The notes beneath the pieces are model-generated. The model was not told the origin of the DNA. It ran no database searches and was given only the letters and a program-made list of their open reading frames with translations. Source: Squalus acanthias (Eukaryota). From it: 64,000 bases of DNA. How positions within the stretch are numbered: position 1 is the stretch's first letter; each line of letters starts with the position of its first letter. The translations under genes and the position numbers were made by a program. Below, in pieces: positions 13,128 through 61,079 of this stretch. The stretch covers positions 94,054,001 through 94,118,000 of the forward strand of contig CM059437.1 of NCBI GenBank assembly GCA_030390025.1, given 5' to 3'.

Positions 13128-13159
<32 letters not shown>

Positions 13160-25071: not shown

Positions 25072-27930
25072 ACGGTAGCATAGTGGTTATATTGCTGGAC
25101 TAGTAACCCAGAGTCCTGGACTAATGATCCGGAGATGCAAGTTCAAATCCCATTTCCCACTGCAGCTGGGGAATTTAAATTCAGTTAATTAAATAATCTG
25201 GAACAAAAAGCCAATATCAGTAATGGTGACCATGAAACCATCACATTGTCGTAAAAACCCATCTGGTTCACTAATGTCCTTACCTGGTCTGGCCTATGTG
25301 ACTCCAGACCCACAGCAATGTGCCACAGAATCATACCCTTCAGCCAATGTCCCAGATTCCTCCATCACCAGACCTGGGTATGTCCTGTCCCACCAGCAGG
25401 ACAGACCCACCAGAGGTGGCGGCACAGTGGTATACAGTCAGGAGGGAGTGGCCCTGGGAGTCCTCAACATTGACTCCGGACCCCCATGAAGTCTCATGGC
25501 TTCAGGTCAAGCACGGGCAAGGAAACCTCCTGCTGATTACCACCTACTCCCCTCCCTCAGCTGATGAATCAGTATTCCTCCATGTTAAACACCACTTGGA
25601 AGAATCACTGAGGGTAGCAAGGGCACAGAATGTATGCTGGGTGGGGGACCGAGCTGGCCGAGTCCTGAAGGACATAGCTGCCAGACGGTGAGAGAACCAA
25701 CACGAGGGGAAAAACCTACTTGACCAATCTACCTGTCGCAGATGCATCTGTCCATGACAGCATTGGTAGCAGTGACCACCGCACAGTCCTTGTGGAGACG
25801 AAATCACATCTTCAGAGGACACCCTCCACCGTGTTGTGTGGCACTACCACCGTGCTAAATGGGATAGATTCAGAACAGATCTAGCAGCTCAAAACTGGGC
25901 ATCCATGAGGCTCTGTGGGCCATCAGCAGCAGCAGAATTGTATTCCACCACAATCTGTAAACTCATGGCCCAGCATATCCCTCACTCTACCATTACCATC
26001 AAACAGGGGACCAACCCTGGTTCAATGAGGAGTGCAGAAGAGTATGCCAGGAGCAGCAACAGGCGTACCTAAAAATGAGGTGCCAACTGCAACACAGGAC
26101 TACATGCATGCTAAAAAGCAGAAGCAGCATGCTACAGACAGAGCTAAGCGATACCACAATCAACGGATCAGAACATAGCTCTGCAGTCCTTTCACATCCA
26201 GTCGTGAATGGTGGTGGACAATTAAACAACTAACGGGAGGCGGCGGCTCCAGGAATATCCCCATCCTCAATGATGACGGAGCCCAGCACTCGAGTGCAAA
26301 AGCCAAGGCTGAATCGTCTGCAATCATCTTCAGCCAGAAGTGCCGAGTGGATGATCCATATCGGCCTCCTCCTGAGGTCCCCACCATCACAGAAGCCAGT
26401 CTTCAGCCAATTCGATTTACTCCACATATCATCAAGAAACGGCTGAGCGCACTGGATACAGCAAAGTATATGGGCCCTGACAACATCCTGGCTGTCGTGC
26501 TGAAGACTTGTGCTCCAGAACTAGCCGCGCCTCTAGCCAAGCTGCTCCAGTACAGCTACGACAATGTGGAAAACTACCCAGGTATGTCCGGTCTACTCCA
26601 ATCTGGCCAATTACCGCCCCATCAGTCTACTCTCAATCATCAGCAAAGTGATGGAAGATGTCGTCGACAGAGCTATCAAGCGGCACTTACCAATGACCTG
26701 CTCACCGATGCTTAGTTTGGGTTCCGCCAAGATCACTCGGCTCCAGACCTCATTACAGCCTTGGTCCAAACATGGACAAAGGAGCTGAATTCCAGAGGTG
26801 AGGTAAGAGTGACTGCCCTTGACATCAAGGCAGCATTTGACCGAGTGAGGCATCAAGGAGCTCTAGTAAAATTGAAGTCAATGGGAATCAGGGGGAAAAC
26901 TCTCCACTGGCTGGAGTCATACCTAGCACAAAGGAAGATGGTTGTGGTTGTTGGAGGTCAATCATCACAGCCCCAGAACATTGCTGCAGGAGTTCCTCAG
27001 GGCAGTGTCCTGGGCCCAACCATCTTCAGCTGCTTCATCAATGACCTTCCCTCCATCATAAGGTCAGAAATGGGGATGTTCGCACAGTGTTCAGTTCCAT
27101 TTGCAACTCCTCAGATAATGAAGCAGTCCATGCCTGAATACAGCAAGACCTGGATGACATTCAAGCTTGGGCTGATAAGTGGCAGGTGTCAGGCAATGAC
27201 TATCTCCAACAAGAGAGTCTCTAATCACCGCCCCTTGACATTCAACAGCATTACCATCGCCGAATCCCCCACCACCTGGGGGTCACCATTGACCAGAAAC
27301 TTAACTGGACCAGCCACATAAATACTGTGGCTACAAGTGCAGGTCAGAGGCTAGGTATTCTGCGTCGAATGTCTCACCTCCTGACTCCCCAAAGCCTTTC
27401 CACCATCTACAAGGTACAAGTCAGGAGTGTGATGGAATACTCTCCACTTGCCTGGATGAGTGCAGCTCCAACAACACAAGAAGCTAGACACCATCCAGGA
27501 CAAAGCAGCCCACTTAATTGGCACCCCATCCACCACCTTAAATATTCACTCCCTCCACCACCAGCGCACCGTGGCTGCAGTGTGTACCATCTACAAGATG
27601 CACTGCAGCAACTCGCCAAGGCTTCTTCGACAGCACCTCCCAAATCCGCGACCTCTACCACCTAGAAGGACAAGGGCAGCAGGCGAATGGGAACACCACC
27701 ACCTGCAAGTTCCCCTCCAAGTTACACACCATCATGACTTGGAAGTATATTGTTGTTCCTTCATCGTCACTGGGTCAAAATCCTGGAACTCCCTCCCTAA
27801 CAGCACTGTGGGAATACCTTCACCACACAGACTGCAATGGTTCAAGAAGGCAGCTCACCAGCACCTTCTCAAGGGCAATTAGGGATGGGCAATAAATGCT
27901 GGCCTTGCCAGCGACGCCCACATCCCAGGA
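25072..27930 (+). mobile_element. Near-complete decayed non-LTR retrotransposon (CR1/L2 superfamily, APE + RT) preceded by a tRNA-like head
   Basis: APE motifs (PGYVLSH.QDRPTRGGG.VVY, TYSPPS, VGD); RT motifs (NYRPISLLSIISKVME, LDIKAAFDRV, GVPQGSVLGP); many frameshifts; tail CTTCTCAAGGGCAATTAGGGATGGGCAATAAATGCTGGCC. Confidence 0.9.
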
Positions 27931-32150: not shown

Positions 32151-34069
32151 TATACAGACTACAAAGACAGCAGCTTGCTATGTCTGATCTCAGATAGCAG
32201 CAGGCACGCGGCAGTTGGCCAAAGCTCTCTTGAATTAGACACAGCAGGGGCTTGAGGAGGGATGAGGAGGAGGGTGGGGGGGGGGGGTGGAAAGAACAGG
32301 AATGTAGCGATCTCTCTCGATCACTACACAGTGACCCGTGTGTGGACGTCTGCTGACAAATTGTGGCTGGGATGGGAGATGCTCCACAGCCAGATGATAT
32401 ATCAACACTTGCCGTCAAGGCTCACAGATGAATAATTGCCATTTGAATGAGGTTATCGGAGGCCATGGGCTGCCTATGGAACAATAAATGAGTCAATAGC
32501 TTCAGGAGAGGTAAATAGACCCAGCTATCAAGCTAATACTACATTCTACAAAGACCAGTTGAATTCCACTGATAACCTTCCTCAGCTCCCAAAGAACTAG
32601 ACCTACAATGTTTGGTGGATAACTGGATCATCTATCTGCATTTATTCTTACAACAGAGATGCCGAAAGTTTTGGAAACTCAAAAGGGAAAAGAAATTCAG
32701 GCGCCACGTTTTACTGAAAAATGTGGAAAATATCTACAAAATACTGCAAGTGGGTATCTCTGCATAAATCTTCAATGCTTTTCTTAATCATCTATTTTGA
32801 TAGGGGTATATTGCAGATTTTTTAAATTAAAGGAACCAAAACGTGAAGGGTGAAGGCCCATATTGCGGGACAGAGTAATGTTGAAAGGGGTGAAAAAGAC
32901 AAAGTAAATCATAAAGTAATGATTTAGTGGCATCAAGCTAGGGTTTTCAAAAAGCCTGAAGATGGCAGGAGGAAGGCGAGAAAGATTGTTCAGAGACACT
33001 GTAAAGAAAGAGTTACAGTAGGAGACTGTGCGTTGCGTGAGGGTGTGGGGAGGAGAGTGTATGTGGAGCCTGGGAGGAACAATCCACACCACTAATACGA
33101 GGGTGCAGGGGAACACGTCTTCTAATCTCACTTGAAGCTTGCGGATTTGTCCCATCGCCACTGTCCTGTGACTGTAATAACCTGCTACATCCACATTATC
33201 TTAGCTTTTCAGCATTTAAAAAGACTTGCATTTATACTGCGCTTTTCACGACCTCCAGACGTCCCAAAGCTCTTCACAGCCAATGAAGTGCTTTTTGCGT
33301 GTAGTCACTGTTGTAATGTAGGAAACATTTTTTAAAAGCCTTGCCCCTTCCTCAATAAGAACAAAAAAAACCATCTCGTGTTGTCACTGGGATTTTAGAT
33401 GTGTCAGATTTTCATACCGAGTCTACTCAGTCCGTGAAAAACAGCCTGTGGTACAATTATACATTTTGACTTTCAAATACTACTTGACGTCTGAAAATGC
33501 ATTTTGAACTAATACATAGCATAAAGGTCAGTTTTGTCAGTACACTGTGGCACTGAATTATTTAAACTTGAAAGGGTTTCTGTGGTGGCTACAGTGTCAC
33601 TGGTGGTGGAAGTGATGAGGTGATAAAATAAGCATTACATTATATTAGTACAAGTAATTTTTTTGCAATACGCTAAATAAGACAAAACTGACTTCTGTCT
33701 GCCTACCTGCATGTAACTTATTTTGTCGAAGCCCTAGACTATTCTTTTCAATCAGGAAGACAAGCCAATAAAAACTCAAAACAGGTCAGTTTATCCATAA
33801 ATGCTCATCAACTGGATCCCTAGGTCTGTGCAAGCAAAGTACTCGAACTCCTCTTTCATCATTAACAGAAACCCTTTCAGGTTTAAATAATTCAGTGCCA
33901 CAATATACTGACAAAGCTGGCTGGGAACATCAAGGACAATCAATCAATAACAAACCGGAGCCAAATTGCCATCAAACAGGATACTCAAAGCAGCAGAGAC
34001 AATGGCTAAAATCCAAAAGCCACCTCACCTTTCACTGAACATACGTTTACCCTGTTTCTAGCATCACTT

Positions 34070-35352
34070 GGCGACCAGATTAAGAAGAACCACCATTCCA
34101 AATGGATGGCGAAAGATAGAGAGTAAGTTGAAGCAGAAAAGGGGGCGTATGACAGATGTCAGGTCGGGAATATATGAGAATCAGGCTAAATATAGAAAGT
34201 TCAGAGAAGTGAAAAAGAAAAGAGGGGCAAAGAGCAGGTATGGGAATAGAATGGCAGCTAACATAAAAGGTAATCCAAAAGTCTTCTATAGGCATATAAA
34301 TAGTAAACGGGTAGTAAGAGGAGGGGTGGGGCCGATTAGGGACCAAAAAGGAGACCTACGCATGGAGGCAGAGGGTATGGTTGAGGTGCTAAATGAGTAC
34401 TTTGCATCTTTCTTCACCAAGGAAGATGATGCTGCCATAGACATAGTGAAGGAGGAGGTAGAGGAGATACTGGATGGGATAAAAATTGATAAACAGGAGG
34501 TACTAGAAAGGCTGGCTGTACTTAAAAGTAGATAAGTCACCAGGACCAGATGGGCTGCATCCTAGGACGCTGAGGGAGGTGAAAGAAGAAATCGCGGAGG
34601 TACTGGCCATAATCTTCCAATCCTCCTTAGGAACGGGGGTGATGCCAGAGGACTGGAGAATTGCAAATGTTACAGCCTCGCTCAAAAAAGGGTGTAAAGA
34701 TAAACCCAGCAACTACAGGCCAGTCAGTTTAACCTCAGTAGTGGGGAAGCTTTTAGAAACAGTAATCAGGGACAAAATTAAAAGTCACTTGGATAGGTGT
34801 GGATTAATTAAGGAAAGCCAGCACGGATTTGTAAAAGGCAAATTGTGTTTAACCAACTTGATCGCGTTTTTTGATGAGGTAACAGAGAGGGTTGATGAGG
34901 GCAATGTGGTTGACGTGGTGTACATGGATTTCCAAAAGGCGTTCGACAAGGTGCCACATAAATAGGCTTGCCAGCAAAGTTGAAGGCCATGGAATAAAGG
35001 GGACAGTGGCAGCACGGATACGAAAGTGGCTAAGTGACAGGAAACAGAGAGTAGTGGTGAACGGTTGTTTTTCGGACTGGAGGAAAATATACAGTGGTGT
35101 TCCCCAGGGGTCGGTACTAAGACCTCTGCTTTTCTATATATATGACTTGGATGTGGCTGTACAGGGCACAATTTCAAAATTTGCAGATGACACAAAACTT
35201 GGAAGTATAATGAACAGTAAGCAGGATAGTGATAGACTTGAAGAGGACAGACAGGCTGGTGGAATGGGTGGACACGTGGCAGATCAAATTTAACACAGAA
35301 AAGTGCAAAGTTATACATTTTGGTAGAAAGAATGAAGAGAGGAAATATAAAC
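34070..35352 (+). mobile_element. CR1 LINE ORF2 fragment, running into an assembly gap
   Basis: NIKGNPKVFY, PEDWRIANVT, NYRPVSLTSVVGK, YMDFQKAFDKVPH and KFADDTK motifs. Confidence 0.95.
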
Positions 35353-35383: not shown

Positions 35384-35883
35384 NNNNNNNNNNNNNNNNN
35401 NNNNNNNNNNNNNNNNNNNNNNNNNNNNNNNNNNNNNNNNNNNNNNNNNNNNNNNNNNNNNNNNNNNNNNNNNNNNNNNNNNNNNNNNNNNNNNNNNNNN
35501 NNNNNNNNNNNNNNNNNNNNNNNNNNNNNNNNNNNNNNNNNNNNNNNNNNNNNNNNNNNNNNNNNNNNNNNNNNNNNNNNNNNNNNNNNNNNNNNNNNNN
35601 NNNNNNNNNNNNNNNNNNNNNNNNNNNNNNNNNNNNNNNNNNNNNNNNNNNNNNNNNNNNNNNNNNNNNNNNNNNNNNNNNNNNNNNNNNNNNNNNNNNN
35701 NNNNNNNNNNNNNNNNNNNNNNNNNNNNNNNNNNNNNNNNNNNNNNNNNNNNNNNNNNNNNNNNNNNNNNNNNNNNNNNNNNNNNNNNNNNNNNNNNNNN
35801 NNNNNNNNNNNNNNNNNNNNNNNNNNNNNNNNNNNNNNNNNNNNNNNNNNNNNNNNNNNNNNNNNNNNNNNNNNNNNNNNNNN
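35384..35883. other. Assembly gap (500 N) after a poly-G run
   Basis: Run of N. Confidence 0.99.
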
Positions 35884-38499: not shown

Positions 38500-39170
38500 G
38501 ACACAGAGTCTGCTGCTGTGGCCGAGGGACGGGGCGGGATTCACCCCCACAGCGACAGGGGAGAGAGAAAGGGAGACAGACCGACCCTCTGGAGCCCCTC
38601 ACCCAGCCCCAGCCCCAGCCTCTCCCTACCCTACCCCCAGGCCCCGGCGTTAGGCCGCAACAAGGTGTGTGTGAGGGGTGAAAAATAATTTTAAAAGCCG
38701 CCGACCCCTCTCCCCGCGACGGCAGACGGCCGAGCAGAGCCGCTCCCCGGTTCGCCGCCGTCCTGAAGCCCTCCCGCGGCGCCGACATTTACCGTCCGGG
38801 CGGTCCGGCCATACGTGGCTTGTTTGCTCCGTCAGCATTGGCCTTCCCCCGTCCCCTGGATACACGGGCCCTCCCGCTGTTGATGCGCAGCCTCCGCCAA
38901 CAAACACTGGCTTATTTTAAAATATAAAATAATTAATAACCGGAAGAGTTTGCAATCGATTTTATTTTTCAAATACCTGCAATAATCATTTTATTATTTT
39001 TAAAAAAGGTTCTTCTTTTCCTTGCACCCACCTGGGGGGAAATCCAAGCCACCGGCTGACTGAGGAGGACGGACCTTTCCGGTTGAGGCTGCGCTGTGAT
39101 TGACAGGTGGAGGGAGCCCAGTTTCTGCTCCAGTCCAGCAGCCTTGACAAGGCTCAGCCCTATCAGTGGC
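38500..39170 (-). promoter_or_regulatory. GOLGA3: CpG island; probable GOLGA3 promoter and non-coding exon 1
   Basis: Sharp GC/CpG-rich island in AT-rich DNA; minus-strand donor candidates CG|GTAAAT (38792) and GG|GTGAGG (38602); CCAAT (~38836), ETS-type CCGGAAG (~38940) and TGATTGACAG (39097-39106, PBX/PKNOX-type). The TSS cannot be determined from sequence. Confidence 0.65.
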
Positions 39171-46465: not shown

Positions 46466-46830
46466 TGACCTTCAACCTAAACAGGACTTCCACTATTTGA
46501 AGGGGCTGCTCCTCGATTTTTGGCTGCACTTCAGTCCCCATGCTCCTGATCTTTGGTCACCCGGTGTGGCGGGGGGAGCGGGCAGATCGGGGAGACCTCC
46601 TCATGGGACTGCTCCTGGGCCTGGCCAAAGTGGCCATCAACTGGTCCAGGCAGCGGGCGGTCGAGGGGGGTCGTTCGGCCCGACTGCCTGCCTCTCTTCC
46701 ACGGCCACGTTCGCGCCCGGGTGGCCCTGGAGACGGAGCTTGCGGAGCACACGGAGCACGCTCGAGGCCTTCCGCCACCGGTGGGCACCGCAGGGACTGG
46801 AGTGCATCATCACCCCGGACAAACAAATTT
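46466..46830 (+). mobile_element. L1/Tx1-clade LINE 3' fragment
   Basis: Frameshifted peptide FHYLKGLLLDFWLHFSP-LLIFGHP..LLLGLAKVAI..SRQ..AFR.RWAPQG, resembling a Tx1 ORF2 C-terminus. Confidence 0.7.
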
Positions 46831-47089
46831 TAATTTAATTTAATAGCAAAATACTGCGAATGCTGGAAATCTGAAATAACAACAGAAAATTTTCTGTTGT
46901 TATTTTTAATTTAATTTGTTAAGTTTCATTTGATGTATTTGTGTTAAGTCACAGCTTTTGTTGATCGCACCAAAAACAGCTTAAACCTAAACAGGCCTTT
47001 CAAGGGGGCGGGAGGGGTGGGGACCACCACCACCACCACCACCTTGCTTTGTTTTGGCAATGTCAAGCAGATTGTTGCCGTTTTAAGAA

Positions 47090-47265
47090 AAGCCTTGTCG
47101 GACGCGCGCCTCCCAGGCGTGTGCATGTGTGTGCGTGCGCGCCCCCTTCCTGGCCGGAGCGCGCCTCAGCTCTTGCCCCATCTGCACAGACACATACACA
47201 CACACACACACAGGTGAATGAAGTGGCGGCGCTGAGCAGCGACCGGGCTCAGTGGCTCCGCGACC
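47090..47265 (+). promoter_or_regulatory. CpG-rich promoter/5'UTR of the CUB gene, with a (CA)n microsatellite and a 5-codon uORF (47218-47235, MKWRR*)
   Basis: CpG/GC-rich stretch directly upstream of the Kozak ATG; CA repeat at ~47190-47212. Confidence 0.6.
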
Positions 47266-47361
47266 ATGGCGGAGAGCTGGCCGGGCAAGCTGCTGCTGCC
47301 GATCCTCGCCACTTTGGTGACAACTTGTAGCATCTGGAGTGCGGAGGCTGCGACCCGCAGG
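47266..47361 (+). CDS. Exon 1 (signal peptide MAESWPGKLLLPILATLVTTCSIWSAEA|ATRR) of an unnamed CUB-domain type-I membrane protein
   Basis: Strong Kozak GCGACCATGG within a CpG island; hydrophobic core plus an A-x-A cleavage motif; donor AGG|GTAGGT (phase 0) fits the phase-0 acceptor at 59822. Confidence 0.8.
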
Positions 47362-48762
47362 GTAGGTGGCAACAACAACAACAAAAAAGCTTTAGCGAAA
47401 ACTGTAACTGGAAACACACACATTAATCAAAAAAGATGCACATTTTGAACGCGGCTGCAGAGCAGTTTAAACCGAGTGCATTGTGCAAAAGAAGGTGCTT
47501 GTGTCACACCGTTCACACTGCAAACGGGTCACAATGCACAATCTTTGCATTTTGTGATTTTTTTTTTTGCATTATTGACTGTTCATCCAAAAACAAAACA
47601 TTTTTGCAAAGTTTGATCTGCATTTTGGGGGGGGGAAGCATTGTTTGAGCAATTGCAAAATAAAACAAAATTCAGTTCGTTATTGTAATCTATTTACAGT
47701 AAAACAAAGTTTGTGTGTTAAACAATCGTGCACCTGGGAACATATATATTTAGCTCTGAGAGGGGAAAATGGTTAAAAGATCTGCACATAGGTCCGGGTT
47801 TATTATTGATCGAATCACTCGACTCGGTTATATTTTTAAAAAATAAATCTGTATGAGACCCCAACTCATAATTTCCATTTAGTCTTAAAAATTAGAGGGT
47901 TTTTTTTTGGCTTTTAAATAACAATTTTTTTTCTCCCTGAAAAAAAAGTTAGCCCTAATATCCAGCCCATCCACAACCAGGAACCGGGAAAGGTTTTAAT
48001 TATTGCCACAGTTTGGACTGTGCACAACATCTGTAAGCTGTGAGTCTGAGAGCCCAGACTGACTGTAGTCCGTGACTGTGTTTATAATGACTGGTTCACG
48101 GGAGGACAATGAAATGCACACTGGGCTGTGAAATGCCCAGCACCGGGGGCTCATTTCCAGGGCAGGAGAGGGCTGATTCTCTGAGCTGTAAAGGTGTTGT
48201 GTACATTTGCCAGTCCCGCTTTTTAAAAAAAAATAAATGAAGCTTTTGTAACGCGTTTTAAAACACGAACAGGAGGGGGAACAGCATATCAAATGACCCA
48301 ATTTTAATGGCTCGCTTTGCTTGTTCGTTTTTTTTAACCATCTAAACCTCCTCCTCTGCAATTATCTGCCTGAAGGGGCTGTGATAAATGTTGCCTTTGT
48401 CTCAGTAACATTGAGATTCTGGGTTAGTGTCCTCGGCCCATGGGATCCGAGGGTTGGTGTTTTTGTTGCGTTCATCCACCCTCCTTGCAGCCTGTTCCTC
48501 CCGTGTTAAATCCGCTAGCATGCTGGACACGTGGAGATGTTGACATGACGGGGGAATTGATGCCATCAACATCAACATAAACTGCGGCTGTGGCGACAGG
48601 CTGGCCAATGGACCTCTCCCCTCCCTCCCACCCCGGCTCAAAGAGCCATCCCAGCACTATTGTTTTTCAAGAGCTGATCTCATTAAAAAGTGGAAACGTT
48701 AATCTGTTCAGGGACTGAGTTTAAACGTGTCTTAAGACATTTCCATAACCTTGTCTATTTAT

Positions 48763-48929
48763 GATGTGGAGATGCCGGCGTTGGACTGGGGTGGACAAAA
48801 ATGAGAAGTCGCACAACACCAGGTTATAGTCCAACAGATTTATTTAAAATTAAATTAAATTAAATTAAAGTAAAATTAAATAAATCTGTTGGACTATAAC
48901 CTGGTGTTGTGCGACTTCTCATTTTTGTC
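48763..48929. repeat. Perfect 54-bp inverted repeat in a probable Penelope-like terminal fragment
   Basis: Arms 48794-48847 and 48876-48929 are exact reverse complements around a 28-nt AT-rich loop; 12-bp flanking direct repeat TTGTCTATTTAT. Confidence 0.85.
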
Positions 48930-49269
48930 TATTTATAAACAGTATTTCTGAGAGTGTAGCTGAGAAAAGTGCACTGTAGAGAATATATGGAAGATTCCTT
49001 TCCAATTCTTGTTTTAAACCGCTTTTTTTGATGTTCCGAAAAGCTGTTTCCAAATGGATACAATCACAAGTCATGTAAATTTAGCGGGAGCCGAAACAAG
49101 TATAATTAACCCTTGCAACGCCGCTGAATGATCTCTTATAGGGAGTTATCGTGCTCCTGGTAACTTCTAAAGTAATAGGACTACTTTAGGTAATTGGCAG
49201 CAGAGGGAGGGGGGGGGGAAGAGGCGGAGATTTAAAAAAAAAAAATTTTTTATTGGAGATTTTTTTTGA

Positions 49270-49490
49270 ATGTAGCAGCGAGTTGTGATCTGGAATGCGC
49301 TGCCTGAAAGGACGGTGGAAGCAGATTCAGTAGTAACTTTCAAAAGGGAATTGGATAAATACTTGAAAAAGAAAAAATTGCAGGGCGATGGGGAAAGAGC
49401 AGGGGGAGTGGGACTAATTGGAGAGCTCTTTCAAAGAGCCGGCACAGGCATGGTGGGCCGAATGGTCTCCTGTGCTGAAGGATTCTAATA
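49270..49490 (+). mobile_element. CR1 3' fragment
   Basis: IWNALPERTVEADS..FKRELDKYL. Confidence 0.85.
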
Positions 49491-49659
49491 GGACTAAGGG
49501 ACTCAGGAAAATTTACAAGAACATGTCAAAGAATTTTTAAAAATTAGAAAAAAATCTTGAATAGAAGGTGGTTAGAAATTACAATTCTCAATCGCAAGCC
49601 ATTGTGGAAACAGTGTCTTAAAAGAGAATTGGATAGTTGCGTGTAAAAACAAGAATATT

Positions 49660-50222
49660 AAAAGTAAAGCAAAATACCGCAGACGCTGGAAATCTGAAAT
49701 AAAAACAGAAAATGCTGGAAACACTCAGCAGGCCAGGCAGCATCTGTGGAGAGAGAAACAGAGTTAACGTTTCAGGTCGATGACCCTTCGTCAAAACTGG
49801 AAAAAGTTGGAGGTGTAACAGGTTTTGAGCAAGTACAGAGGCAGGAAAAGGGGGGAGGGGAGGAAAGAACAAAAGGGAAGGTCTGTGATAGGGTGGAAGG
49901 CAGGAGAGATTAAATGACGAAAGGGATGATGGTGCGAGGTGAAAGGGGGTGGTAATGGGACATGTAAAAAAACAAAAGATTAGTCTAGAGGAGGTGTAAA
50001 TGGCAACACCAGAATCATTACCAGCGCCTGCTGTCTGGAAAAAATGGGAGCTGTGGTTGTGATCTGAAATTGTTGAACTCGATGTTGAGGCCGGAAGGTT
50101 GTAAAGTGCCGAATCAAAAGATGAGGTGCTGTTCCTCGAGCTTCCGTTGAGCTTCATTGGAACAGTGTGGGAGGCCGAGGACGGAGAGTTCGGAGTGGGA
50201 CAGAGAATTAAAATGACAGGCG
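49660..50222 (-). mobile_element. Penelope-like element 3' fragment (GIY-YIG C-terminus + terminal repeat); terminal pieces also at 45146-45236 and 46842-46905
   Basis: Minus-strand frame reads ACHFNS..LSVLGL.HCSNEAQRKLEEQHLIF*FGTLQPSGLNIEF, a PLE-type endonuclease end, followed by a hammerhead-like motif. Confidence 0.85.
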
Positions 50223-50656
50223 AAAATGACATGATAGTAAAAGCTCAGGAGAGTGGGTTCAGATTAGGGTGCTTGTGGAGACAAACACTGTGCAGACTTT
50301 GAACAAAATGGAGTGTTTCTTTGTCTGTCTCTACAGTGTGGACCCTCCTAGCTTTCCAGTCAACTAGAGGCCGAGTTTGATATTAATCCCACTTCCAAAA
50401 TGGCTGAAGGGCCCAAAGGCTCAAGCAAGCAAGTGAGCGAGAGCATAAAATAATTAGTAAAGCTTAAAAAATATTACAAATAATATTTTAAAGAATGGGA
50501 GGGGAATGAAGATAGTTTGAGTGGTTTAAGACTTTTCATTTAAAAGTGTATATTTTAGTTGTACAAGGTTAAAATTGCAGCAACCTGTCAGCAGCTATTT
50601 ACAAAAAAGTTTCAGAAATCAAACATTAATGAAGTTAGCAATTCGAAACAGTGAAT

Positions 50657-51075
50657 CAACAACAACAACTTGCATTTATATAGCCCCTTTAACGTAGTAA
50701 AACATCCCAAGGCACTTCACAGGAGCGATTATCAAACAAAATTTGACATCGAGCCACATAAGGAGATATTAGGGCAGATGGTAGTTAAGGGAATGGAAAA
50801 AGTGAACCCAGAATATTACTTTAAATTAAAGTTGCAGGAGTAGAACCAGAGGACACGGATTCAAACTAGTAAACGGTAATTTTAAACTCTCCACCTCTTT
50901 TTCCTCCTTTAAGACGCTCCTTAAAACCTTCCTCTTTGAGCAAGCTTTTGGCCACCTGTCCTAATATCTCATGTGGCTCGGTGTCAAATTTTGTGTGTTG
51001 ACGCTCCTGTGAAGCACCTTGGGACGTTTTACTATGTTAAAGGTGCTGTATAAATACAAGTTGTTGTGGTTGTTG
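50657..51075. mobile_element. Two L2 3' tails in opposite orientation (50657-50780 -, 50885-51075 +)
   Basis: TGTGAAGCACCTTGGGACGTTTTACTA..TAAATACAAGTTGTTG tail. Confidence 0.8.
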
Positions 51076-51404
51076 TTAGGTCAGTTTGTGAGACGCAGTA
51101 TATATAATTGGTTAGTGGATCAGAAGAAGGTTTTTCCGTGAAATGATATTTGAATGTATCCATGATATTGGATGAAAGGGTTATTTCCATATAAATGCAG
51201 AATATGTTAGAAAAATATGACTGACCAGAAATCACGTGGATAAAAAATTTCCATAGATCTCAAAATTGGGATTCTAGAATCACAGATCAGCAGCACCAGT
51301 TTACCAACATCATTTCTCAACACTGGTTTACCAAAAATCATTTCTCTTTTATATAAAATGTTTTCTTCTCTGCCAATGTCTTGCTCCTTTAGTCCCAGTT
51401 TTGT

Positions 51405-51645
51405 TATTTTTTTTTGTTCACGGGATGTGGGCATCGCTGGCAAGGCCCATCCCTAATTGCCCTTGAACAACTGAATGGCTTGTTGGGCCAGAGGGCAGTT
51501 AAGAGTCAACCACATTGCTGTGGATCTGGAGTCACATATAGGCCAGACTGGGTAAGGACGGCAGATTTCTTTCCCTAAAGGACATTAGTGAACCAGATGG
51601 GTTTTTACGACAATCATGGTCAACATTACTGATACTAGCTTTTTT
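51405..51645 (-). mobile_element. Short element joining the 5' body of the 25072-27930 element directly to its 3' tail
   Basis: Reverse strand reads ..GTGACTCCAGATCCACAGCAATGTGGTTGACTCTTAAC..TTCAAGGGCAATTAGGGATGGG..CCCACATCCC. Confidence 0.85.
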
Positions 51646-51848
51646 TCTCTACCCAGTCTTAAAAGGACAATTACATCCATCATTGATTTACATGAGCAGT
51701 TCCTTTACTTAAAAGAAAACCAATACTAACTGACTATCTTACAGTAAAGCCGTACTTTAATCTGTGTTGCATTCCTTTTTACAAATAGCTGAAATGAAAC
51801 TTGCTATCATTTTTTATCACTTTTTTAAGAGCTCAGAGGTTCAAGGGT

Positions 51849-52915
51849 AGAATCATAGAATGGTTACAGCGTGGAAGACGGCCATTCGGCCCATCAAGCC
51901 CGTGTCGACTCTCGGCTAGTCCCACTCCCCAGCCCTTTCCCCGTAGCCCTGCAAATTTCTTTCATTCAGATACTTATCCAATTCCCTTTTGAAAGCCGTG
52001 ATTGAGTCTGCCTCCACCACCCTTTCAGGCAGTGCATTCCAGATCCTAACCACTCGCTGCGTAAAAAAGTTTTTTCTTGCGTCGCCTTCGGTTCTTTTGC
52101 CAATCACCTTAAATCTGTGTCCTCTGGTTCTCGACCCTTCTGCCAATGGGAACAGTTACTCTCTATCTACTCTGTTCAGACCCCTCATGATTTTGAGCAC
52201 CTCTATCAAATCTCCTCTGCTCTAAGGAGAACAACCCCATCTTCTCCAGTCTATCAACATAACTGAAGTCCCTCATTCCTTGAATCATTCTCGTAAATCA
52301 TTCCTGCACCCTCTCTAAGGCCTTCACATCCTTCCTAAAGTGTGGTGCCCAGAATTGGACACAGTACTCCAGTTTGGGGCTGAACCAGTGTTTTATAAAG
52401 GTTCATCATAATTTCCACACTTTTATTACTCTATACCTCTATTCATGAAGCCCAGGATCCCGCAAGCCTTTTTAACTGCTTTCTCAACCTGCCCTGCCAC
52501 CTTCAATGATTTATGCACACATACCTCCAGGTCTCTCTGTTCGTGCACCCCCTTCAGGATTGTACCATTTAGTTTATCTGTCCTCGCTTCATTCTTTCTA
52601 CCAAAATGTATCACTTTGCACTTTTCTGCGTTAAATTTCATCTGCCATGTGTCCGCCCATTTCACCAGCCTGTCTATGTCTTCCTGAAGTCCATCACTAT
52701 CCTCCTCACTGTTCACTATACTTCCAAGTTTTGTGCCATCTGCAAATGTTGAAATTGTGCCCTGTACACCCACGTCCAAGTCATTAATATATATCAAGAA
52801 AAGCAGTGGTCCTAGAGCCGACCCCTGGGGAACACCACTGTGTACCTTCCTCTAGTCTGAAAAACAAGCGTTCACCACTACTCTCTGTTTCCTGTCACTT
52901 AGCCAATTTCGTATA
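51849..52915 (-). mobile_element. CR1 LINE 3' 1 kb
   Basis: IYINDLD..FADGTK..WQMKFNAEKCKVIHFG..FFTQRVVRIWNALP; TATGATTC tail. Confidence 0.95.
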
Positions 52916-53893
52916 GGGTGAATCAAGTTTCCATTCAAACCAGAAATTAGTGAGTGTTTTTCAGTAAACTTTGTCTGGCTTCAGTATCGAGAGATCAGGT
53001 TTTGTTTACCTTTTTACCCAAACAGCTGTGTGTTGGATTTAAAAGGTGACCTGATCTTAAAATTCCACAAAAAGAATTCATCTCGCTTCGAATATTCCCA
53101 CTATTTCTAAACCAGGAGAGAAGGTCGATTTGGCAAGTGTGGCTGTGCCATTTATTGTATTTAGGAATAAGTGGGCATGCCAACCAAATATGTGGTATTA
53201 AGCTTTGATTAAAGTAGGTATTCAGACAGTGTTAAGAAGTGCTGGAAATGCAGGGTCATTCTAGTTTTTAAAAGTAAGCTTAAAGGTGAAACATGCCTAA
53301 GACAATGGCCGGGGAGGGGGATGGAAACGGGGGGCGAGGGAACAGTGTTTGTGGCGAGAATGAAGACAATGGCTTTGGTCTTCCCAGTGTGTAATTGGAG
53401 GAAATTGAGGCTCGTCCAGTGATGGATGTAGTCTGAGATCACCGAGGCAGTGGAGGGGTCGAGAGAGGTGGTGGAGAGGATGCACTGGGCATCGCCAGCG
53501 TACATGGGGAACCCGACGTGTTTTTGGATGAAGACACTACGCGGAGCTTGTAGATCAGATAGAATCATAGACATTTACAGCACCAAAAGGAAGCCATTCG
53601 GCCCAACGTGTCCGTGCCGGCCGAAAAAGATCTACCCAGCCTAATCCCACTTTCCAGCACTTGGCCCGTAGCCCTGTAGGTTACGGCACTTCAAATGCAT
53701 ATCCAAGTACTTGTTAAATGCGGTGAGGGTCTCTGCCTCTACCGCCCTCTGGGTGGAAAAAGTTCTCCTCAACTCCCCTCTAATCCTACGACCAATGACT
53801 TTAAAATGCATCCAAGGGGAAGCTAGATAAGTGCATGAGGGAGAAAGGTACGGAAAGATATGCTGATATAGTTAGATGAAGGAAGGTGTGGAG

Positions 53894-54056
53894 CAATGTT
53901 CCCATTAAGCTGCGTGGCCGCGCAGCGCTCTGGAGGTCCCGTGCAGGGCGTTCACCAGCTTTTCAATAGAAGTAACCGCGCATGCGCAAAAAATTGATTG
54001 GTCCACGCAGCCAGTTAAAGGGCCCACGCACCCCAAAAAAAGGACAGGTAACATTG
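53894..54056. mobile_element. hAT-type MITE (163 bp) inserted in a CR1 tail
   Basis: 8-bp TSD GTGTGGAG (53886-93, 54057-64); TIR CAATGTTCCC / reverse complement CAATGTTACC. Confidence 0.85.
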
Positions 54057-54834
54057 GTGTGGAGCCGAAACACCGGCATGGACCAGTTGGGCCGAATGGC
54101 CTGACTCTGTGCTGTAAATTCTATGTAATTCTGCGCATTGCCTCCAGAAGGATACCTCAAGAAACTTGCATCTGGAAGAGGTGAATGCTCTTGCTGGTAT
54201 TACTGATCCCCTCTCTAGTGCCCCAGAGTGTGTAACTTTACAACATTGACGCTGCCAAGGTCACACCACAGTGCCATTCATGCTGCATTCGCTCTGGTAT
54301 GAACTTGGCAACATGTAAATACAGTGCAAGTCATCCTTGTGGAAACACGGCCGTTTACTCAACGTTTTTACTTTCCCCTCTGATCTCTGCCAGCTTGGCA
54401 ATGCAACAGAGGGAGTCTTTAAGGCAGTGTGTGAACAGTAACTGGCAGCCCTTGGTGTGAAAAAAGCTTTGATCCAAAGTTATTTCACGGACTTTAAAAT
54501 CCAGTTTACTGAACAAACTTCTCTTTTGGCAAATGAGATTCAAGTGAAAGTCCACTTCAGAGAAACAGGTTTGCTTTTACTTTTTAACTCACACAATGAC
54601 CACAGGCAGAAGTTCCATTGGAAACTGATCGCAACACAGCATGTTCGGGCAGCTGAAAATGAGACTCGACTCTGGTCATTTGGCTTTGTAATTGCGCCTG
54701 TTACAAGGTGTCATTATTAAATCAGTTGGATGTTGGGAGTTCTGTTTGAAAGCTCTCATGAGATTCATTATTGAATCTATGGCTTGTGCAGTTGCAAATT
54801 ACAGTTAAAATTGGCCACTAAAAGCATTTGTAAT

Positions 54835-55270
54835 TCATAGAATCATAGACGTTTATGGCACAGGAGGCCATTCGGCCCATCGTGTCCGTCCCGGCTGACA
54901 AAGAGCGATCCAGCCTAATCCCACTTTCCAGCTCTTGCTCCGTAGCCCTGTAGGTTACAGCACTTCAAGTGCATATCCAAGTATTTTTTAAATGTGGTTA
55001 GGGTTTCTGCCTCTACCACCCTTTCAGGCAGTGAGTTCCAGACCCCCACCACCCTCTGGGTGAAAAAAATTCTCCTCAAATCCCCTCTAAACCTCCGACC
55101 AATTACTTTAAATCTATGCCCCCTTATTATTGACCTCACTGCGAAGGGAAATAGTTCCTTCCTATCCACTCTATCTTGGCCCCTCATAATTTTATACATC
55201 TCAATAAGGTCTCCCCTCAGCCTCCTCTGTTCCAAAGAAAACAGCCCCAGCCCCAGCCTATCCAATCTTT
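54835..55270 (-). mobile_element. CR1 3' fragment
   Basis: LFSLEQRRLRGDLIE..FFTQRVVGVWNSLPE. Confidence 0.92.
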
Positions 55271-55959
55271 CCTTTGATACAGAACAGGCACTGAAGTGTG
55301 AAAGGCAGCAAACAAATTACAATTAGTATTTTTTTAAATTCTTCCTCTGCTCTTTTTCCATCTTTATGTTGACTCTTGTTAATCGTCCACCAATGAAAGC
55401 TGCTTCTGTTCCATTACTACTTGACCGTGGTGGTCAAAACAGCTGTAAACCAGGAATCCCCGCTGCAAGTATTGGCAAGTGGAACTGATGCTGGTGACAA
55501 CTTACAGCGACACCATAGGGCCTAAAATCTTCCTAATCTGCCGCCGTATTCCTGCAATCCAGTCCGGAGGGAGTGCGGAAGAGGGGATCCGAAATAGGCC
55601 GCTGATACTGGATACACCAGGTCCCCAGCAGTTTCCGCGGTGCCTTGTTTGGGCTGGAGCCTCCACCTGCCTCAAAGGACACTGAGTTAAGAGGGGCCGA
55701 GGCCAGCAGAGGGAAGTTTCCTCGTCCCTGGACTGGCCGCGACTGGACGTGCTGGTGCCACCATCCGGGAGATGTGGGACCCACCTGGGGAAGGGAGGGA
55801 GGGAGGTCCACGGCTAGACCCCCAAAGAGGTTCCAAATTTCAAGAGGATTTGCTGGCCCCCAGTTTACCTCACACCCCATCACTTGTTTCCGCTTCCTTG
55901 GACAGGTGGGCACCCAAGAGGCATCCCTGTTGGCGCAGGCACATACCTGGGTTATTTAA

Positions 55960-56957
55960 TCGAGGCAATGCCTCGATTTTAAAATTCTCATTCTTGTGTC
56001 CAAATCCCTCCATGGCCTCACCCCCCCCCCCCTATCTCTGTAACCTCCTCCGGCCCTACAACCCTCCGAGATCGCTGCGTTCCACTCATTCTGGTCTCTT
56101 GCGCATCCCCGATTTTAATCGCTCCACCATTGGCGGCCGTGCCTTCAGCTGCCTAGACCACAAGCTCTGGAATTCCCTCCCTAAACCTCTCCGCCTCTCT
56201 ACATCTCTTTCCTCCTTTAAGACGCTCTCCAAAACCTACCTCTTTGACCTGGCCTAATATCTCCTTGTGTGGCTGGGTGTCAAATTTTAGAATCATAGAA
56301 TGGTTACAGCACAGAAGGAGGCCATTCGGCCCGTCGAGCCCGTGCCGGCTCTCTGCAAGAGCACTTCAGCTAGTCCCACTCCCCCGCGCTTTCCCTGTAG
56401 CCCTGCAAATTTTTTTCCTTCAGGTACTTATCCAACTCCCTTTTGAAAGCCGTGATTGAGTCTGCCTCCACCACCCTTTCAGGCAGTGCATTCCAGATCC
56501 TAACCACTCGCTGAGTAAAAAAGTTTTTTCCTCCTGTCACCTTTGGTTCTTTTGCCAATCACCTTAAATCTGTGTCTTCTGGTTCTCGACCCTTCCGCCA
56601 ATGGGAACAGTTTCTCTCTATCTACTCTGTCCAGACCCTTCATGATTTTGAACACCTCTATCAAATCTCCTCTCAACCTTCTCTGCTCTAAGGAGAACAA
56701 CCCCAGCCTGTCCACGTAACTGAAGTCCCTCATCCCTGGAATCATTCTCGTAAATCTTTTCTGCACCCTCTCTAAGGCCTTCACATCCTTCCTAAAGTGC
56801 GGTGCCCAGAATTGGACACAATACTCTAGCTGAGGCTGAACCAGTGTTTTATAACGGTTCATCATAACTTCTTTTGTTTGATAATCGCTCCTGTGAAGCA
56901 CCTTGGGATGTTTTACTACATTACAGGCGCTATATAAATGCAAGTTGTTGTTGTTGT
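55960..56957 (+). mobile_element. L2 3' part interrupted by a CR1 (56289-56870, -)
   Basis: L2 STIGGRAFS..KLWNSLPK; GGTGTCAAATTTT|GTTTGATAATCG is split by the CR1 with a TTTT duplication. Confidence 0.9.
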
Positions 56958-59322
56958 AGGTGACCGCGCCCTGAACTCGCCAACGTTGGCGGGGTCAGCG
57001 CCGGAGGTGACTGGCAGGCAAATCCCAGCACTTCCCCTGGGATGGACGGCCCCTGGATTTTGCTTTACCTCCTTTCCCTCCCCACCATGACCAGTTTGAC
57101 CCAGTGCTCCACTTCAGAAACTGAAAAGGTGAAATCGTCCTGAAGAATTTTTATTTAAGGGCACACTGTTGCTCAAAAATGAGAAACAGACCAAACTGAT
57201 TTTATATTTACGTAGCTTGTTTTGGAAATGTAGAAGAATAACTAGTCCTAGTTATTATCTCGGCTAGATCAGAGAGTGCTCCAATTGCTTGTTGAAGTCA
57301 GCTCCTTTAATGTGGTGACAAGTGGTTTAAATTAAAATGGGACTTTGAAGGAACCCTGGTATGCTTTAAGACTGAAGATTAAAGTTGACGTGCTGGGATT
57401 TGTTCTTTAGGAGGTTTTCCCAGCACATCTGTCACATCTGGTAGTCGTAAACTTCATTTTTAAGTATAGTGAAATTTTAAAATAATGCAATGGAAAAATG
57501 TTAATAGTTTCAAAATGTGTTCTTTTATTGGTTTGTATAAGTTTACACCTCGGGTCGTGGTTTGATACAGAGCGCACGCTACGTTACCAATAGTTGTGAT
57601 GGGAACACTCCTTCCATGGCCGTAACCATCTATATACCAGTCGATAGGGGGGATAGTCCTGTGCGGCGGGAGGGTTTTCTGGGCTCCCCCACCCATATGA
57701 TGGGGGCGCCACCCACACCCACCAGATGCGTTTGTCCCGCTGGATGTCAACCCAGAATTGAGAGCCGGAGCTGCGGTCCCCACTCACCTGGACTGTCAGA
57801 GACCAGGGGCTGGATTTTGCCAATGGGGAGCTTTTGGAGGCGGGACTCCCACTTGTCGGGTTTTAGTCCCGCCTCCATCGACTTCTGGCCAACCCACGCT
57901 ATTTTCCCTTGATTGACCTTGTTAAGCCCGCCCAGCGGGCTTAGCAGGCCAATTAAGGGGAAGCTGGTTACAGAGAACGTCAGCGTATGACGTTTCATCT
58001 GTCAAAAATTTTTGACAGATGAATTGTCATCGTTTGACAGCTCTGTGAAGCTGTCACACACTGACATTCTCTGTAGTTTGATGAGTTCTTGTACTCAATA
58101 CTCACCAAACCTCGTTCTTTAGCAGAAATTAGATGGTTGTTGCATTGGGAATGCAGCAGCCATCTGTCATCTCTGCCATGGAGATGCGAGACTCTCCGCA
58201 TCCCCAACCATTGAAGTCTGCAGGAAGAAACAAAGGTAAGCAAACTTTTTCTAACACTTTCCACTTACCTCACATACTCACCTCTCCACACTTGCACCCA
58301 TCACTTACCTTCACAGCGCACTTTTGCACCCCGCAGACCCCCGCAGACCCACTACTCGCCTCGGTGACCCTGGCGGGGTTTGCAGCCTTCGGGAAGCCCG
58401 CACTTGTGTGGGTAAAATGGGGATAATCCTCTTATCTGCCTGTTAACTACCTGTTAACAGGCAGTTAAGTGGCTGTAATCCCCTTCCCGCCTCTAGGCGA
58501 TGGGACCCGACGTGGGACGGCTACCCGCCTCCTGAGAAGTTGGCACGAGGCGGGTTGGGTACCCACCCCCAGATTCTGCCATTTTCCCGGCAGTCCCACC
58601 TCCCCAGGGTTCGAACTATGCACCCTCTGACTCGGAGGCGGGAATGCTACCACTAAGCCAAAGGCTCGCTCCTATCTGTAGCTATTTACTTAGGGTGGGA
58701 TGCTTGGTGATAGGATGGTACAATTAAAAACAATTCCCTTGGTCTCCCTGAGCCACTCACCAGCTGTGGCCACGAGGACAGATGTGTCTCCAGCAAAGCC
58801 GCTCTGCATTATGGGGGTGCCTGTTATAAAGGTAATGTTATATGAGCAGTGAGGGACAGGTAAAGACCCTCTGGTCCATCCAGCCTGTCCCACACAATTG
58901 TGATACCTCCACCCCACCCAAAACGATGTGATCTCCTGGGCGAGGCCAAATACCAGATTTAAAAACCCAGGCCAATTTGATGGGGAAATCTGGGAAATTC
59001 CTCTCTGACCACCCCCCCCCAAGGCAATCAAAACTAGTTCAGGAGATCACTCTGGCCCCGATAATTCTATGCAGTACCTCCCTTCTGCACAAGGTGATCT
59101 CCGCCCCAGCCAGAAACAGCCAGCTCTCGCTTGAAGGAATTCAGCAAATTGGCATCCACCGCACAAGCCAGCAGCCTGTTCCAGAGGTTATACTGTAACC
59201 AGCCTTAGACAGGTAGCTCTCACTGAGCATTCAGACAATACCCAGCGTGAGGAAAAACACCAAAATTACACAACAATAATGACATTTGTGTCCTCCATCA
59301 ATATCTCCGCCCCCCCCTATCT

Positions 59323-59641
59323 AGGGGAAATCTAGAACTCGGGGGCACAGTTTCAGAATAAAGGGGTCGCCCTTTTAGAACTGAGATGAGGAGGAATTTC
59401 TTCTCTCAGAGGGTCGTAAATCTGTGGGAATTCTCTGCCCCAGAGAGCTGTGGAGGCTGGGTCATTAAATACATTTAAGGTGGAGATAGACAGATTTTTG
59501 TAAGATAAGGGAGTGAAGGGTTATGGGGAGCGGGCAGGGAAGTGGCTTTGAGCCCAAGATCAGCCATGATCTTACTGAATGGCGGAGCAGGCTCGAGGGG
59601 CCAAGTGGCCTATTCCTGCTCCTATTTCTTATGTTCTTATG
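59323..59641 (+). mobile_element. CR1 3' end, very similar to 8200-8508
   Basis: Long identical blocks and a TTCTTATGTTCTTATG tail. Confidence 0.92.
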
Positions 59642-59821
59642 TCCTTCCTGTTTGGTTAGACATCCAGCTGTTCTATGTTGAGTCCAATTCATTAAAATTA
59701 TTTAATAATATCTTTGGGTAAGCTGGTACAAATAGGAAAGGGAATTGGCGCTGGGGAGTAGAGGAAGGAGTTGAGAAATCATGTGCTGTCTTGGTGATCT
59801 CCTCCAATATTTTGTTTCCAG

Positions 59822-60873
59822 GTCTATTGTTCGTGTGGAGCCATTGTTGATTCGGAAGCTCGAGGTATTATACTGTCACCTGGCTTCCCCACCAGTTACA
59901 TTCCAGGCACGCATTGTGTGTGGCAATTCTTCATCCCGGCTGGAGTCCATCTCATTTTGGAAGTTTTCGATTTTGATGTGTTTGAGAATCCACGTAATGG
60001 TAAAACCCTACTTGGCGACCATTCAGCCCCTGCGATGGTCGATGGGGAGAAGTCTGTTTCCGGTTCACTGAAGAATGGGGGCGCTGTACAGAGTCGAGAG
60101 TCCAACAACCTGTATTCCCATACGAAGGAGTCCCGTCAAGATGGAAGAATAAAGGTGTCGTTTAATGAGACCAATGTGTCTAACTCCAAAGTTTTTGATG
60201 TTGATTACCAGGATTTCTCTGTGACCCAACCCGATAAAGCTGAAGACCAATGGGTGGTGGCACAGGAAGAGTCCGCACAGCTAGAGACGGTTAAGATGCC
60301 ACCGTTGATGCATGATACCTCAGTGACTGACTCTCCACTTGATGTGGATAAGGATGATTCTACAGAGTCAAATTCAAGTGATCCTCTGGCCGGTTTTGGT
60401 GATTCCAAAGACATCAATGTGGACCCACAATACAACAGTGAAAAACAAGCTGGGAAGAGGCTGGAAATTGACCATCTTGAATTGCAAGAGGTAAATGATT
60501 CAACTGTAGCCACAATGATCCCTGAGACAAAAGCGACGCCCTTCGCACCTCCTGAGGTCTGCCCGAATGATGTTTTATATATTTCGGATCTGATCACATT
60601 CTCTGCCCGCTTTTGCGGGGCCAACTCGCCCGTGAACAAGACATTGACGTTTGGTTCCTCCCTGGAGATGGTGGAGGTCGTGGTGGAGCTGATCACCACC
60701 ACAGACCGCGGGCGTGGCTTTATTCTTCTCTACCAGTTTAAAACTGGCGTAGATGCCGACCTCCGGACCCTGATGAAGCACAGGGGCCAAGACAACCTGA
60801 TCCATTTCTTGGTCATCGCTGGTGTTGCCCTCTTATCGGCGGTGCTTTTGACTGCGCTCTGTCGGACCTGGAG
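59822..60873 (+). CDS. Exon 2: split CUB domain + ~190-aa insertion + transmembrane helix; cytoplasmic exons not found in the window
   Basis: Acceptor tattttgtttccag; 350 open codons: VYCSCGAIVDSEARGIILSPGFPTSY..HCVWQFFIPAG.HLILEVFDFDVFE [insert] CPNDVLYISD...RFCG..SP...RGFILLYQF, then FLVIAGVALLSAVLLTALC; perfect donor AG|GTGAGT after 60873. Confidence 0.9.
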
Positions 60874-61079
60874 GTGAGTTTAAACTTCTTTCAGTTGTCC
60901 CTCTGGTTCCTCAAACATATGCAGGATCTGTCCTAGAAACTAAACTTTGTTCCAAAACTTGTTACTGTTTAAGAGGGAGATGTCTTTCGGGGTTCAGCTT
61001 AAGACTTGTAACAACTATGCATTCTATATTCTTATTCAAATAAAATTTGAAAAAATGCACCATCGAAGAACGAAAGAGT

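Follow-up and report, generated by a model that had tools for sequence, protein, structure and literature searches.

The question raised by the locus described here is whether a single CUB domain can be interrupted in its middle by an insert of 191 residues and still form one domain, and what a membrane protein built in this way might be used for. The locus lies in a stretch of 64,000 nucleotides from Squalus acanthias (assembly GCA_030390025.1, contig CM059437.1, positions 94,054,001 to 94,118,000 of the forward strand), which is called the window in what follows and in which all positions are numbered. A preliminary description, made from the DNA letters alone, had drawn attention to an unnamed receptor-like gene at 47266..60873. 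As judged from its sequence and from structure models, this gene, present as a single copy in jawed vertebrates, very probably encodes a type I membrane protein composed of a signal peptide, one CUB domain, a stalk, a transmembrane (TM) helix and a tail bearing conserved motifs. The best overall explanation is that of a split-CUB sorting receptor or co-receptor whose CUB face is modulated by the loop, and the chances that this explanation is right are about even.

Two coding exons are found in the window, both on the plus strand. Coding exon 1 (47266..47361) contains 32 codons for a signal peptide with a hydrophobic core, matches residues 1-31 of the orthologues and ends at a phase-0 GTAGGT donor. 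It is followed by intron 1 (47362..59821), a phase-0 GT-AG intron of 12,460 nucleotides, and by coding exon 2 (59822..60873), whose 1052 nucleotides, bounded by the acceptor TTTCCAG and, at 60874, the phase-2 donor GTGAGT, encode the entire split CUB domain, the stalk and the TM helix. The start codon of exon 1 is supported by its good Kozak context, an upstream in-frame stop and a CpG island across the 5′ end of the gene (46501..47500; GC content 0.53-0.57, CpG observed/expected 0.74-0.76). With tBLASTn, exon 1 corresponds to the first ~31 residues and exon 2 to the next ~350 residues of four named cartilaginous-fish orthologues. Splice sites and orthologue matches thus bear out the layout proposed earlier, i.e., a signal-peptide exon joined in phase to one exon of 1052 nucleotides. 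The tail exon was not found in the window with these four orthologues, and 176 named orthologues gave zero tBLASTn matches in the window beyond exons 1 and 2. A third exon within the window was sought at 14 candidate acceptors and rejected, as these yielded just short, unrelated peptides. Upstream of the start, an open reading frame (ORF) of five codons (~47227-47244, plus strand) lies in the same frame and stops seven codons ahead of it; this small ORF could dampen translation.

By sequence, the gene is the shark orthologue of zebrafish si:dkey-112e17.1 (ENSDARG00000093201), represented by LOC771494 in chicken and LOC100495295 in Xenopus tropicalis. Best-match similarity, exon layout and a species-tree-like phylogeny all agree with this assignment, and the signal-peptide exon and split CUB are the same throughout the family, nothing structural being different in the shark. 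Named relatives were listed from sharks, rays, chimaera, bichir, sturgeons, gar, bowfin, teleosts, coelacanth, lungfish, amphibians, turtles, alligator, birds and squamates; the closest orthologues among the matches listed are those of Heptranchias (82% identical over exon 2) and Pristiophorus (79%). In a quick maximum-likelihood tree built from 40 named rows, the main groups track the species tree, as fits one orthologous gene. Database labels for the family are "uncharacterized" or "CUB domain-containing". Two more specific names, "F-box only protein 6" in Platysternon and "CUB and sushi domain-containing protein 2" in Varanus, were set aside as probable naming errors, as Pfam shows half a CUB alone in these entries. 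The preliminary description could not match the architecture to a named human gene, and no well-characterised named orthologue was found. Gene names and identifiers gave zero relevant matches in the main texts searched, most subscription papers lying outside the search, and the supplements that were searched (PMC8517238, PMC6363392 in part, PMC8405809 and PMC9191896) show no trace of the gene. An Atlas search with 59822-60874 returned as its top match a cluster of 72 mostly arthropod CUB proteins of 743 residues (score 0.88, 164 shared features), below the lead line of 0.9. This cluster resembles the present family in length and is a possible invertebrate counterpart.

The two parts of exon 2 that flank the insert can be recognized as portions of a CUB domain. 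The N-half (59822..59986), with the C5-C32 pair, Y26 and E55, matches Pfam PF00431 with an E-value of 2e-6 and 28.4 bits against a gathering cut-off of 21.4, residues 5-60 being aligned to positions 1-55 of the 110 in the model. The match covers the N-half alone. The C-half (60560..60739), which contains the C247-C265 pair, D250 and the invariant E285, E289, T292 and T294, gave zero Pfam matches by itself at E<=1, and Pfam hence reports one half only, where two partial matches had been anticipated. The C-half was recognized by its alignment with cubilin, its invariant columns and its fold match. In the phmmer alignment, positions 1-53 of cubilin 3kq4_B fall on the N-half and positions 54-110 on residues 247-306, the second piece being weak alone. 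As this alignment runs across both parts, they are consecutive pieces of one domain; in cubilin itself the corresponding region is contiguous, without an insert. The orthologue alignment shows conserved halves around a variable insert, as was expected beforehand, with median identities to the window protein of 0.69 (N-half), 0.73 (C-half) and 0.13 (insert). At least 90% conservation is reached at 57 of the 115 CUB positions, compared to 1 of the 191 insert positions (110 rows). Wherever a row has a residue, the CUB cysteines are invariant (C5 100/100, C32 106/106, C247 110/110, C265 110/110), and E47, E285 and E289 are invariant or nearly so. An additional Cys is encoded by codon 3 of exon 2 (59828-59830, plus strand), where Tyr or Phe is present in 93 of 100 rows and Cys in no other row; it is either a fifth, unpaired extracellular Cys, an allele or a sequencing error.

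To these comparisons a predicted structure can be added. The full exon-2 protein, insert included, was modelled with AlphaFold without templates from 110 sequences and compared with 48,161 solved chains. In the model, strands are placed on either side of the insert, which itself has no strands and a single helix of five residues at its start. The top 13 matches of the fold search are all CUB domains (Z 9.0-10.1, root-mean-square deviation 2.6-3.4 Å), with 98-109 aligned residues spanning both halves; the matched chains come from MASP-1/3, Gpr126, Kremen, MAP-1, neuropilins, TSG-6, C1s, cubilin and Neto2. A shallower model from 25 sequences agrees on the CUB fold (Z 5-6.4). These results agree with the idea, already put forward in the preliminary description, of a single CUB fold around a disordered loop: the halves are predicted to fold together, with the insert looping out of one closed CUB sandwich from a point after the strand that ends in Glu55 and before the Cys-x-x-Asp250 segment. 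The halves were also predicted as two separate chains, which gave a score of 0.49 versus 0.00 for the best of three controls, with at least 96% of contacts shared between runs and a partner pLDDT (predicted local distance difference test) of at least 69. The mark used for such pairs is reached by 51/78 solved complexes and 2/108 mismatched pairs, and in eukaryotes by 39/65 solved and 2/126 unrelated pairs. Passes at or below 0.60 include just 5 of the 78 solved complexes, yet all 4 passing mismatches of 180. The predicted pairing gives weak support, and resemblance of the halves to CUB domains already solved can account for the result.

The insert itself (59987..60559, plus strand) has the composition that was noted at the outset: its 191 residues contain no Cys, 35 D/E against 18 K/R, 34 S/T and the four N-glycosylation sequons NET, NVS, NSS and NDS. 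Both composition and model suggest a disordered segment. Stop-free runs of 191 codons are rare in intron 1, being present in 18 of 23,770 fixed-frame windows (theory 1e-4), so that the openness of the insert is unlikely to be due to chance. Moreover, the insert is retained by its orthologues. From 144 named sequences examined, 16 were missed by the pattern used, and all 128 measurable ones have an insert, with a length of 87-199 residues (median 171). It is likewise present in 110/110 alignment rows and in the 25 measurable of 33 further named proteins. The insert is net negative in 126/128 sequences and contains a Cys in 3/128. Sequons number 220 versus 160±12 in shuffles of the 110 rows, which are related and not independent. 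Besides these general properties, one short stretch of the insert (60236..60295, residues ~139-158) carries a V-x-Q-E-Q-S-T-like motif of fishes, detected in the alignment and by insert-only BLAST. The string VVVQEQSTK is shared unchanged by chimaera, bowfin and a killifish, with close variants in coelacanth, gar and sharks; the inserts of chimaera and bowfin match each other with an E-value of 2e-4, and a strict pattern of the motif is found in 19/110 rows, in fishes only. The shark insert has no significant BLAST similarity to those of chicken or frog.

Whereas the disorder proposed for the loop is thus in line with composition and model, its proposed mucin-like character is not. Mucin segments rich in proline, threonine and serine are recognized by a serine plus threonine content of at least 40% across a long stretch. 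This value is reached by 0/110 inserts, and the maximum in any 50-residue window of the window protein is 24%. Other specialized functions of the insert were rejected as well. A proteoglycan core was dismissed, as Ser-Gly pairs are not enriched (99 observed versus 117.5±10 in shuffles of 110 inserts), Fam20C-type S-x-E sites are not enriched either, and a Pfam match to MG4 in the insert (E 0.08, under the cut-off) was taken as chance. With respect to expression of the insert, the UniRef entry of Iconisemion (155-residue insert) is presumably transcriptome-derived. The 745-residue Aquarana protein, again with a 155-residue insert, is also listed under a Logan source, from which we infer a spliced transcript. 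Judged by sequence and prediction, the insert is a translated part of the protein. One protein, P0276 from Coryphaenoides (1144 residues), has the split CUB twice in tandem, and the C-half of the second copy is altered; this reflects either a tandem duplication or a fused gene model.

The position of the insert within the domain may be relevant to its function. Calcium-binding CUBs are described in the available part of PMC10850435 as sharing a Tyr-Glu-Asp-Asp signature, and in Gpr126 the signature residues are, in the portion of bioRxiv 10.1101/805515 at hand, Y61, E89, D97 and D134. In the 110-row alignment Tyr26 is present in 106/106 rows, position 55 is Glu in 90 and Asp in 12 of 108, and D250 is present in 110/110. 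As Y26, E55 and D250 are retained, the loop sits between a pair of ligands whose spacing, 8 residues in Gpr126 according to the same portion, is 195 residues here; the insert is therefore located next to the Ca2+/ligand-binding loops, as had been supposed. The last Asp of the signature is, judged by the alignment, not conserved as Asp in either of two registers. In the phmmer register it corresponds to D295, a position occupied by Asp in 61, by Asn in 27 and by His in 17 of the 110 rows, while in a register with fewer gaps it coincides with a Thr (292-293) that is near-invariant. This makes calcium binding uncertain, and the face used for binding is remodelled.

C-terminal to the CUB domain, a short stalk (60740..60805, plus strand) is variable, with a median identity of 0.10 over residues 307-327. 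The TM helix, earlier placed at ~60803-60862, is found at 60806..60862 (residues 329-347, Kyte-Doolittle 2.66). It ends in a Cys that is conserved in 104/110 rows, and a Cys within 12 residues past the helix is present in 85/87; the latter may be palmitoylated. Most full-length orthologues have ~630-830 residues, including a cytoplasmic tail of several hundred residues, the exons of which lie beyond the window end in the shark. Motifs were thus counted in 119 named orthologues of at least 600 residues. The motif D-x-x-P-L-[VIL] is present in 117 of these tails, mostly ending in Val, and is, by its sequence, of the acidic dileucine type, making it a candidate site for adaptor protein (AP) complexes. 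Its shark form, DRQPLV, resembles ERQPLL of mouse tyrosinase as cited in the accessible part of PMC3418312. Other tail motifs are of the types D/E-E-V-F-V-I (107), R-x-R-x-W-S (103) and P-V-F-V-I-S-E (100). The tail gave no detectable relative in an Atlas search with the turtle tail, and no significant Pfam family outside CUB. When compared with the consensus patterns of SUMO-interacting motifs and AKT sites, two V-F-V-I-S motifs beside acidic runs are SUMO-interacting-motif-like and R-x-R-x-x-S is AKT-site-like.

The family is widespread in jawed vertebrates, and mammals, monotremes included, were not found among the named rows listed in three homologue searches, one of which was made with the turtle tail (25 named rows in the best 120 of 131 matches, 118 in the best 120 of 267 and 118 in the best 120 of 213). 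The listed matches to the turtle tail extend as far down as bichir and chimaera, by way of amphibians and lungfish. The zebrafish gene maps to chr5:17,318,219-17,372,713, with chfr 9 kb away and golga3 and ankle2 1.1 Mb away (supplement rows of PMC5690287). In the window, a divergent multi-exon coiled-coil gene is present on the minus strand (~1225-16245), with a CpG island at 38501-39000. Its stop-free stretches are 1225-1665, 2808-3206, 5874-6611, 10480-10722 and possibly 15730-16245. We take this gene to be GOLGA3, although no tool named it, and in the human genome GOLGA3 lies immediately beside CHFR. With the zebrafish neighbours, this arrangement fits a loss of the gene between them, and a loss in the mammalian line is quite likely. 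Lists of mammal-lost genes in the literature searched contain nothing on the gene; a list of 147 chicken genes (PMC3296468), which may include it, fell outside this search.

Taken together, these elements suggest a functional model, which as a whole (partner binding, tuning by the loop and sorting by adaptors) is tentative and stands slightly below even chances. The very conserved CUB surface would bind a protein partner, either a ligand or another membrane protein. The acidic and usually N-glycosylated loop, tethered beside the CUB face, would tune access to it through steric and charge effects, and the short conserved motif in the insert might act as a docking site. In the tail, D-x-Q-P-L-V could recruit the AP-2/AP-1 adaptors, such that the tail would connect with clathrin adaptors and, probably, with kinases as well. 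The protein may then shuttle from the surface to endosomes and back, acting as a sorting receptor or co-receptor in a way comparable to LRP10/LRP12 or NETO-type accessory proteins.

Several observations weigh against this picture. The net charge of the insert is close to zero in turtles, 20/110 inserts have no sequon, and the insert motif, strong in fishes, is eroded in tetrapods and catfish. Most orthologue records are gene models, and two annotated ones are without parts of the insert, namely those of Latimeria (H3BEH6, 114 residues versus 179 in the NCBI model) and Lucifuga (120 residues). The quality of the predicted structure is moderate (mean pLDDT 59.9, CUB blocks ~55-89, predicted template-modelling score 0.45), and a Foldseek search with the 25-sequence model returned nothing at E<=0.001, one half alone being matched. 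The mammalian absence rests on the named rows among the matches listed. No ligand, partner, localisation or phenotype of the family was found in the literature searched. Finally, the tail motif ends in Leu-Val instead of Leu-Leu/Ile and has an Asp at -4. In OCA2, an Asp at this position abolished AP-3 binding and reduced AP-1/AP-2 binding, as reported in the accessible part of PMC3418312. By this similarity, endocytosis or endosomal cycling is predicted more than melanosome targeting.

Alternatively, the insert may be a tolerated and mostly neutral expansion of a surface loop, e.g., an old intron that became coding, while CUB domain and tail do all the work. The single insert position conserved at 90% or more, the more than twofold variation in length, the drifting composition and the lack of significant similarity of the shark insert to those of chicken and frog are all as expected for such a loop. 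However, none of the named orthologues examined has an insert shorter than 87 residues in any jawed-vertebrate lineage, nine motif residues are identical in chimaera and ray-finned fishes, and sequons are enriched, albeit in rows that are not independent; neutrality is for these reasons considered unlikely. The insert could also be an exitron, with splicing toggling between a split and a near-canonical CUB. A phase-0 AG preceded by 12/14 pyrimidines is indeed present at 60554-60557 (plus strand), just before the third Cys, from where the exon would restart at 60557; weak phase-0 GT sites occur at 59978 and 60038, and the two annotated models mentioned above are without parts of the insert. This AG, however, lies within a Glu codon, and the position is Glu in 33/110 rows and Asp, which makes an AG impossible, in 77/110. 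In addition, a G precedes the AG, the best donors score 5-6 of 9, the frame is open throughout and no examined named sequence is without the insert. Regulated removal by splicing is accordingly very improbable.

Two other explanations assign a more specific role to the protein. In one of them, the loop is a protease bait, and cleavage would produce a two-chain CUB held by strand pairing, thereby unmasking the binding face or allowing the N-half to be pulled off by force or ligand, as in SEA domains. Disulfides in CUB domains usually connect C1 with C2 and C3 with C4, and the resulting pairs C5-C32 and C247-C265 are each within one half here, on opposite sides of the insert. The disorder of the loop, the weakly predicted association of the separate halves, which may be due to likeness to solved CUBs, the presence of KR/RR pairs in 54/110 inserts versus 37±4 in shuffles and a K-R site after the motif, common to many teleosts, gar and bowfin, are in favour of cleavage, and SEA domains are described as cleaved yet associated in the part of bioRxiv 10.1101/805515 that is available. 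The preliminary description had suggested proteolytic clipping too, but a conserved furin-type site was not found: strict R-x-K/R-R sites occur in 2/110 inserts where 1.2 are expected, R-x-x-R in 8/110 where 12.3 are expected, and no basic site is positionally conserved in all lineages. Protease bait is thus a rather doubtful reading, and equally doubtful is the combined scheme of a built-in switch, in which the loop would mask the binding face through its motif until regulated cleavage leaves a two-chain CUB held by strand pairing alone. In the other explanation, the protein functions in the egg, in oocyte uptake or as an egg-surface receptor, and was lost when mammals gave up yolky eggs. The endocytic-type motif in the tail and the lack of mammals among the named rows listed fit this proposal, as does the zebrafish mRNA, which belongs to cluster 3, "maternally supplied and then degraded" (PMC5690287), and is detected in oocytes and eggs. 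Its level is low, however, with ~3-9 counts per million in wild-type oocytes and 13-23 in eggs (supplement rows of PMC7924785). Moreover, the gene is not present in the ovary single-cell supplements searched (PMC9191896), the neighbours chfr and ankle2 likewise belong to an early, pre-zygotic cluster, and no monotreme is among the named rows listed; an egg protein is improbable. Separately, of the 4 oocyte rows shown in the supplements of PMC7924785, 3 call the zebrafish transcript UP in ski7 mutants. The split-CUB sorting receptor or co-receptor remains the preferred reading.

The remainder of the window contains reverse-transcriptase-like ORF pieces at 7042-9831, 26179-27882, 34062-35293, 52426-52851, 54915-55316 and 56500-56994, presumably degraded CR1-type long interspersed nuclear elements. 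Two N gaps are present, at 2540-2668 and 35384-35883.

CUB modules are compact, and they bind through their calcium loop. An insertion of 87-199 residues at this very place could be a route to regulation or re-purposing of the module. It is kept in all examined jawed-vertebrate lineages save mammals, and such regulation of a CUB was not found described in the literature searched; nothing relevant on interrupted or insertion-bearing CUBs was found there either, subscription papers being mostly outside the search. As profile searches detect half a domain, the protein is mislabelled or overlooked. A whole receptor may have been lost in mammals with this gene, and orthologues that can be tested exist in zebrafish, Xenopus and chicken. 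If true, the built-in switch would be a cleaved-but-assembled module, of which SEA and GAIN domains are the examples described so far, and part of a receptor pathway of non-mammalian jawed vertebrates that mammals discarded. At present, the value of the protein is that of a well-defined, testable oddity.

How does this protein compare to known systems? LRP10/LRP12/LRP3, NETO1/2 and Kremen are CUB-bearing single-pass receptors or accessory subunits, and LRP3/10/12 and NETO have two CUB domains plus LDLa repeat(s). The split-CUB protein shares with all of these a type I membrane topology and an ectodomain containing CUB. In contrast to them, it has no LDLa, kringle or WSC domain, and its single CUB is split; in 19 orthologues scanned, one CUB and no LDLa were found, except for the tandem-copy P0276, which places the family outside LRP3/10/12 and NETO. 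LRP10 (LRP9) likewise uses proline-preceded dileucine motifs, according to the accessible part of PMC3418312. With the calcium-binding CUBs of Gpr126/Adgrg6, MASP-1/3, TSG-6, neuropilins, cubilin, PCPE-1 and Kremen, the domain shares the fold, the four cysteines and the first three signature residues (Tyr26, Glu55 and Asp250), but not a conserved final Asp. In a canonical, contiguous CUB, a short loop connects the Glu strand to the third Cys, whereas this connection has 191 residues here and 87-199 in the orthologues. In SEA domains, as far as the consulted portion of the source describes them, a fold cleaved in a loop stays assembled, while cleavage is a proposal only for the present domain. 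The nearest case found is BAI3/ADGRB3, which has an extended CUB whose extra sequence matters for binding (available part of PMC12749725); there the addition is C-terminal, and here it is placed in the middle of the domain.

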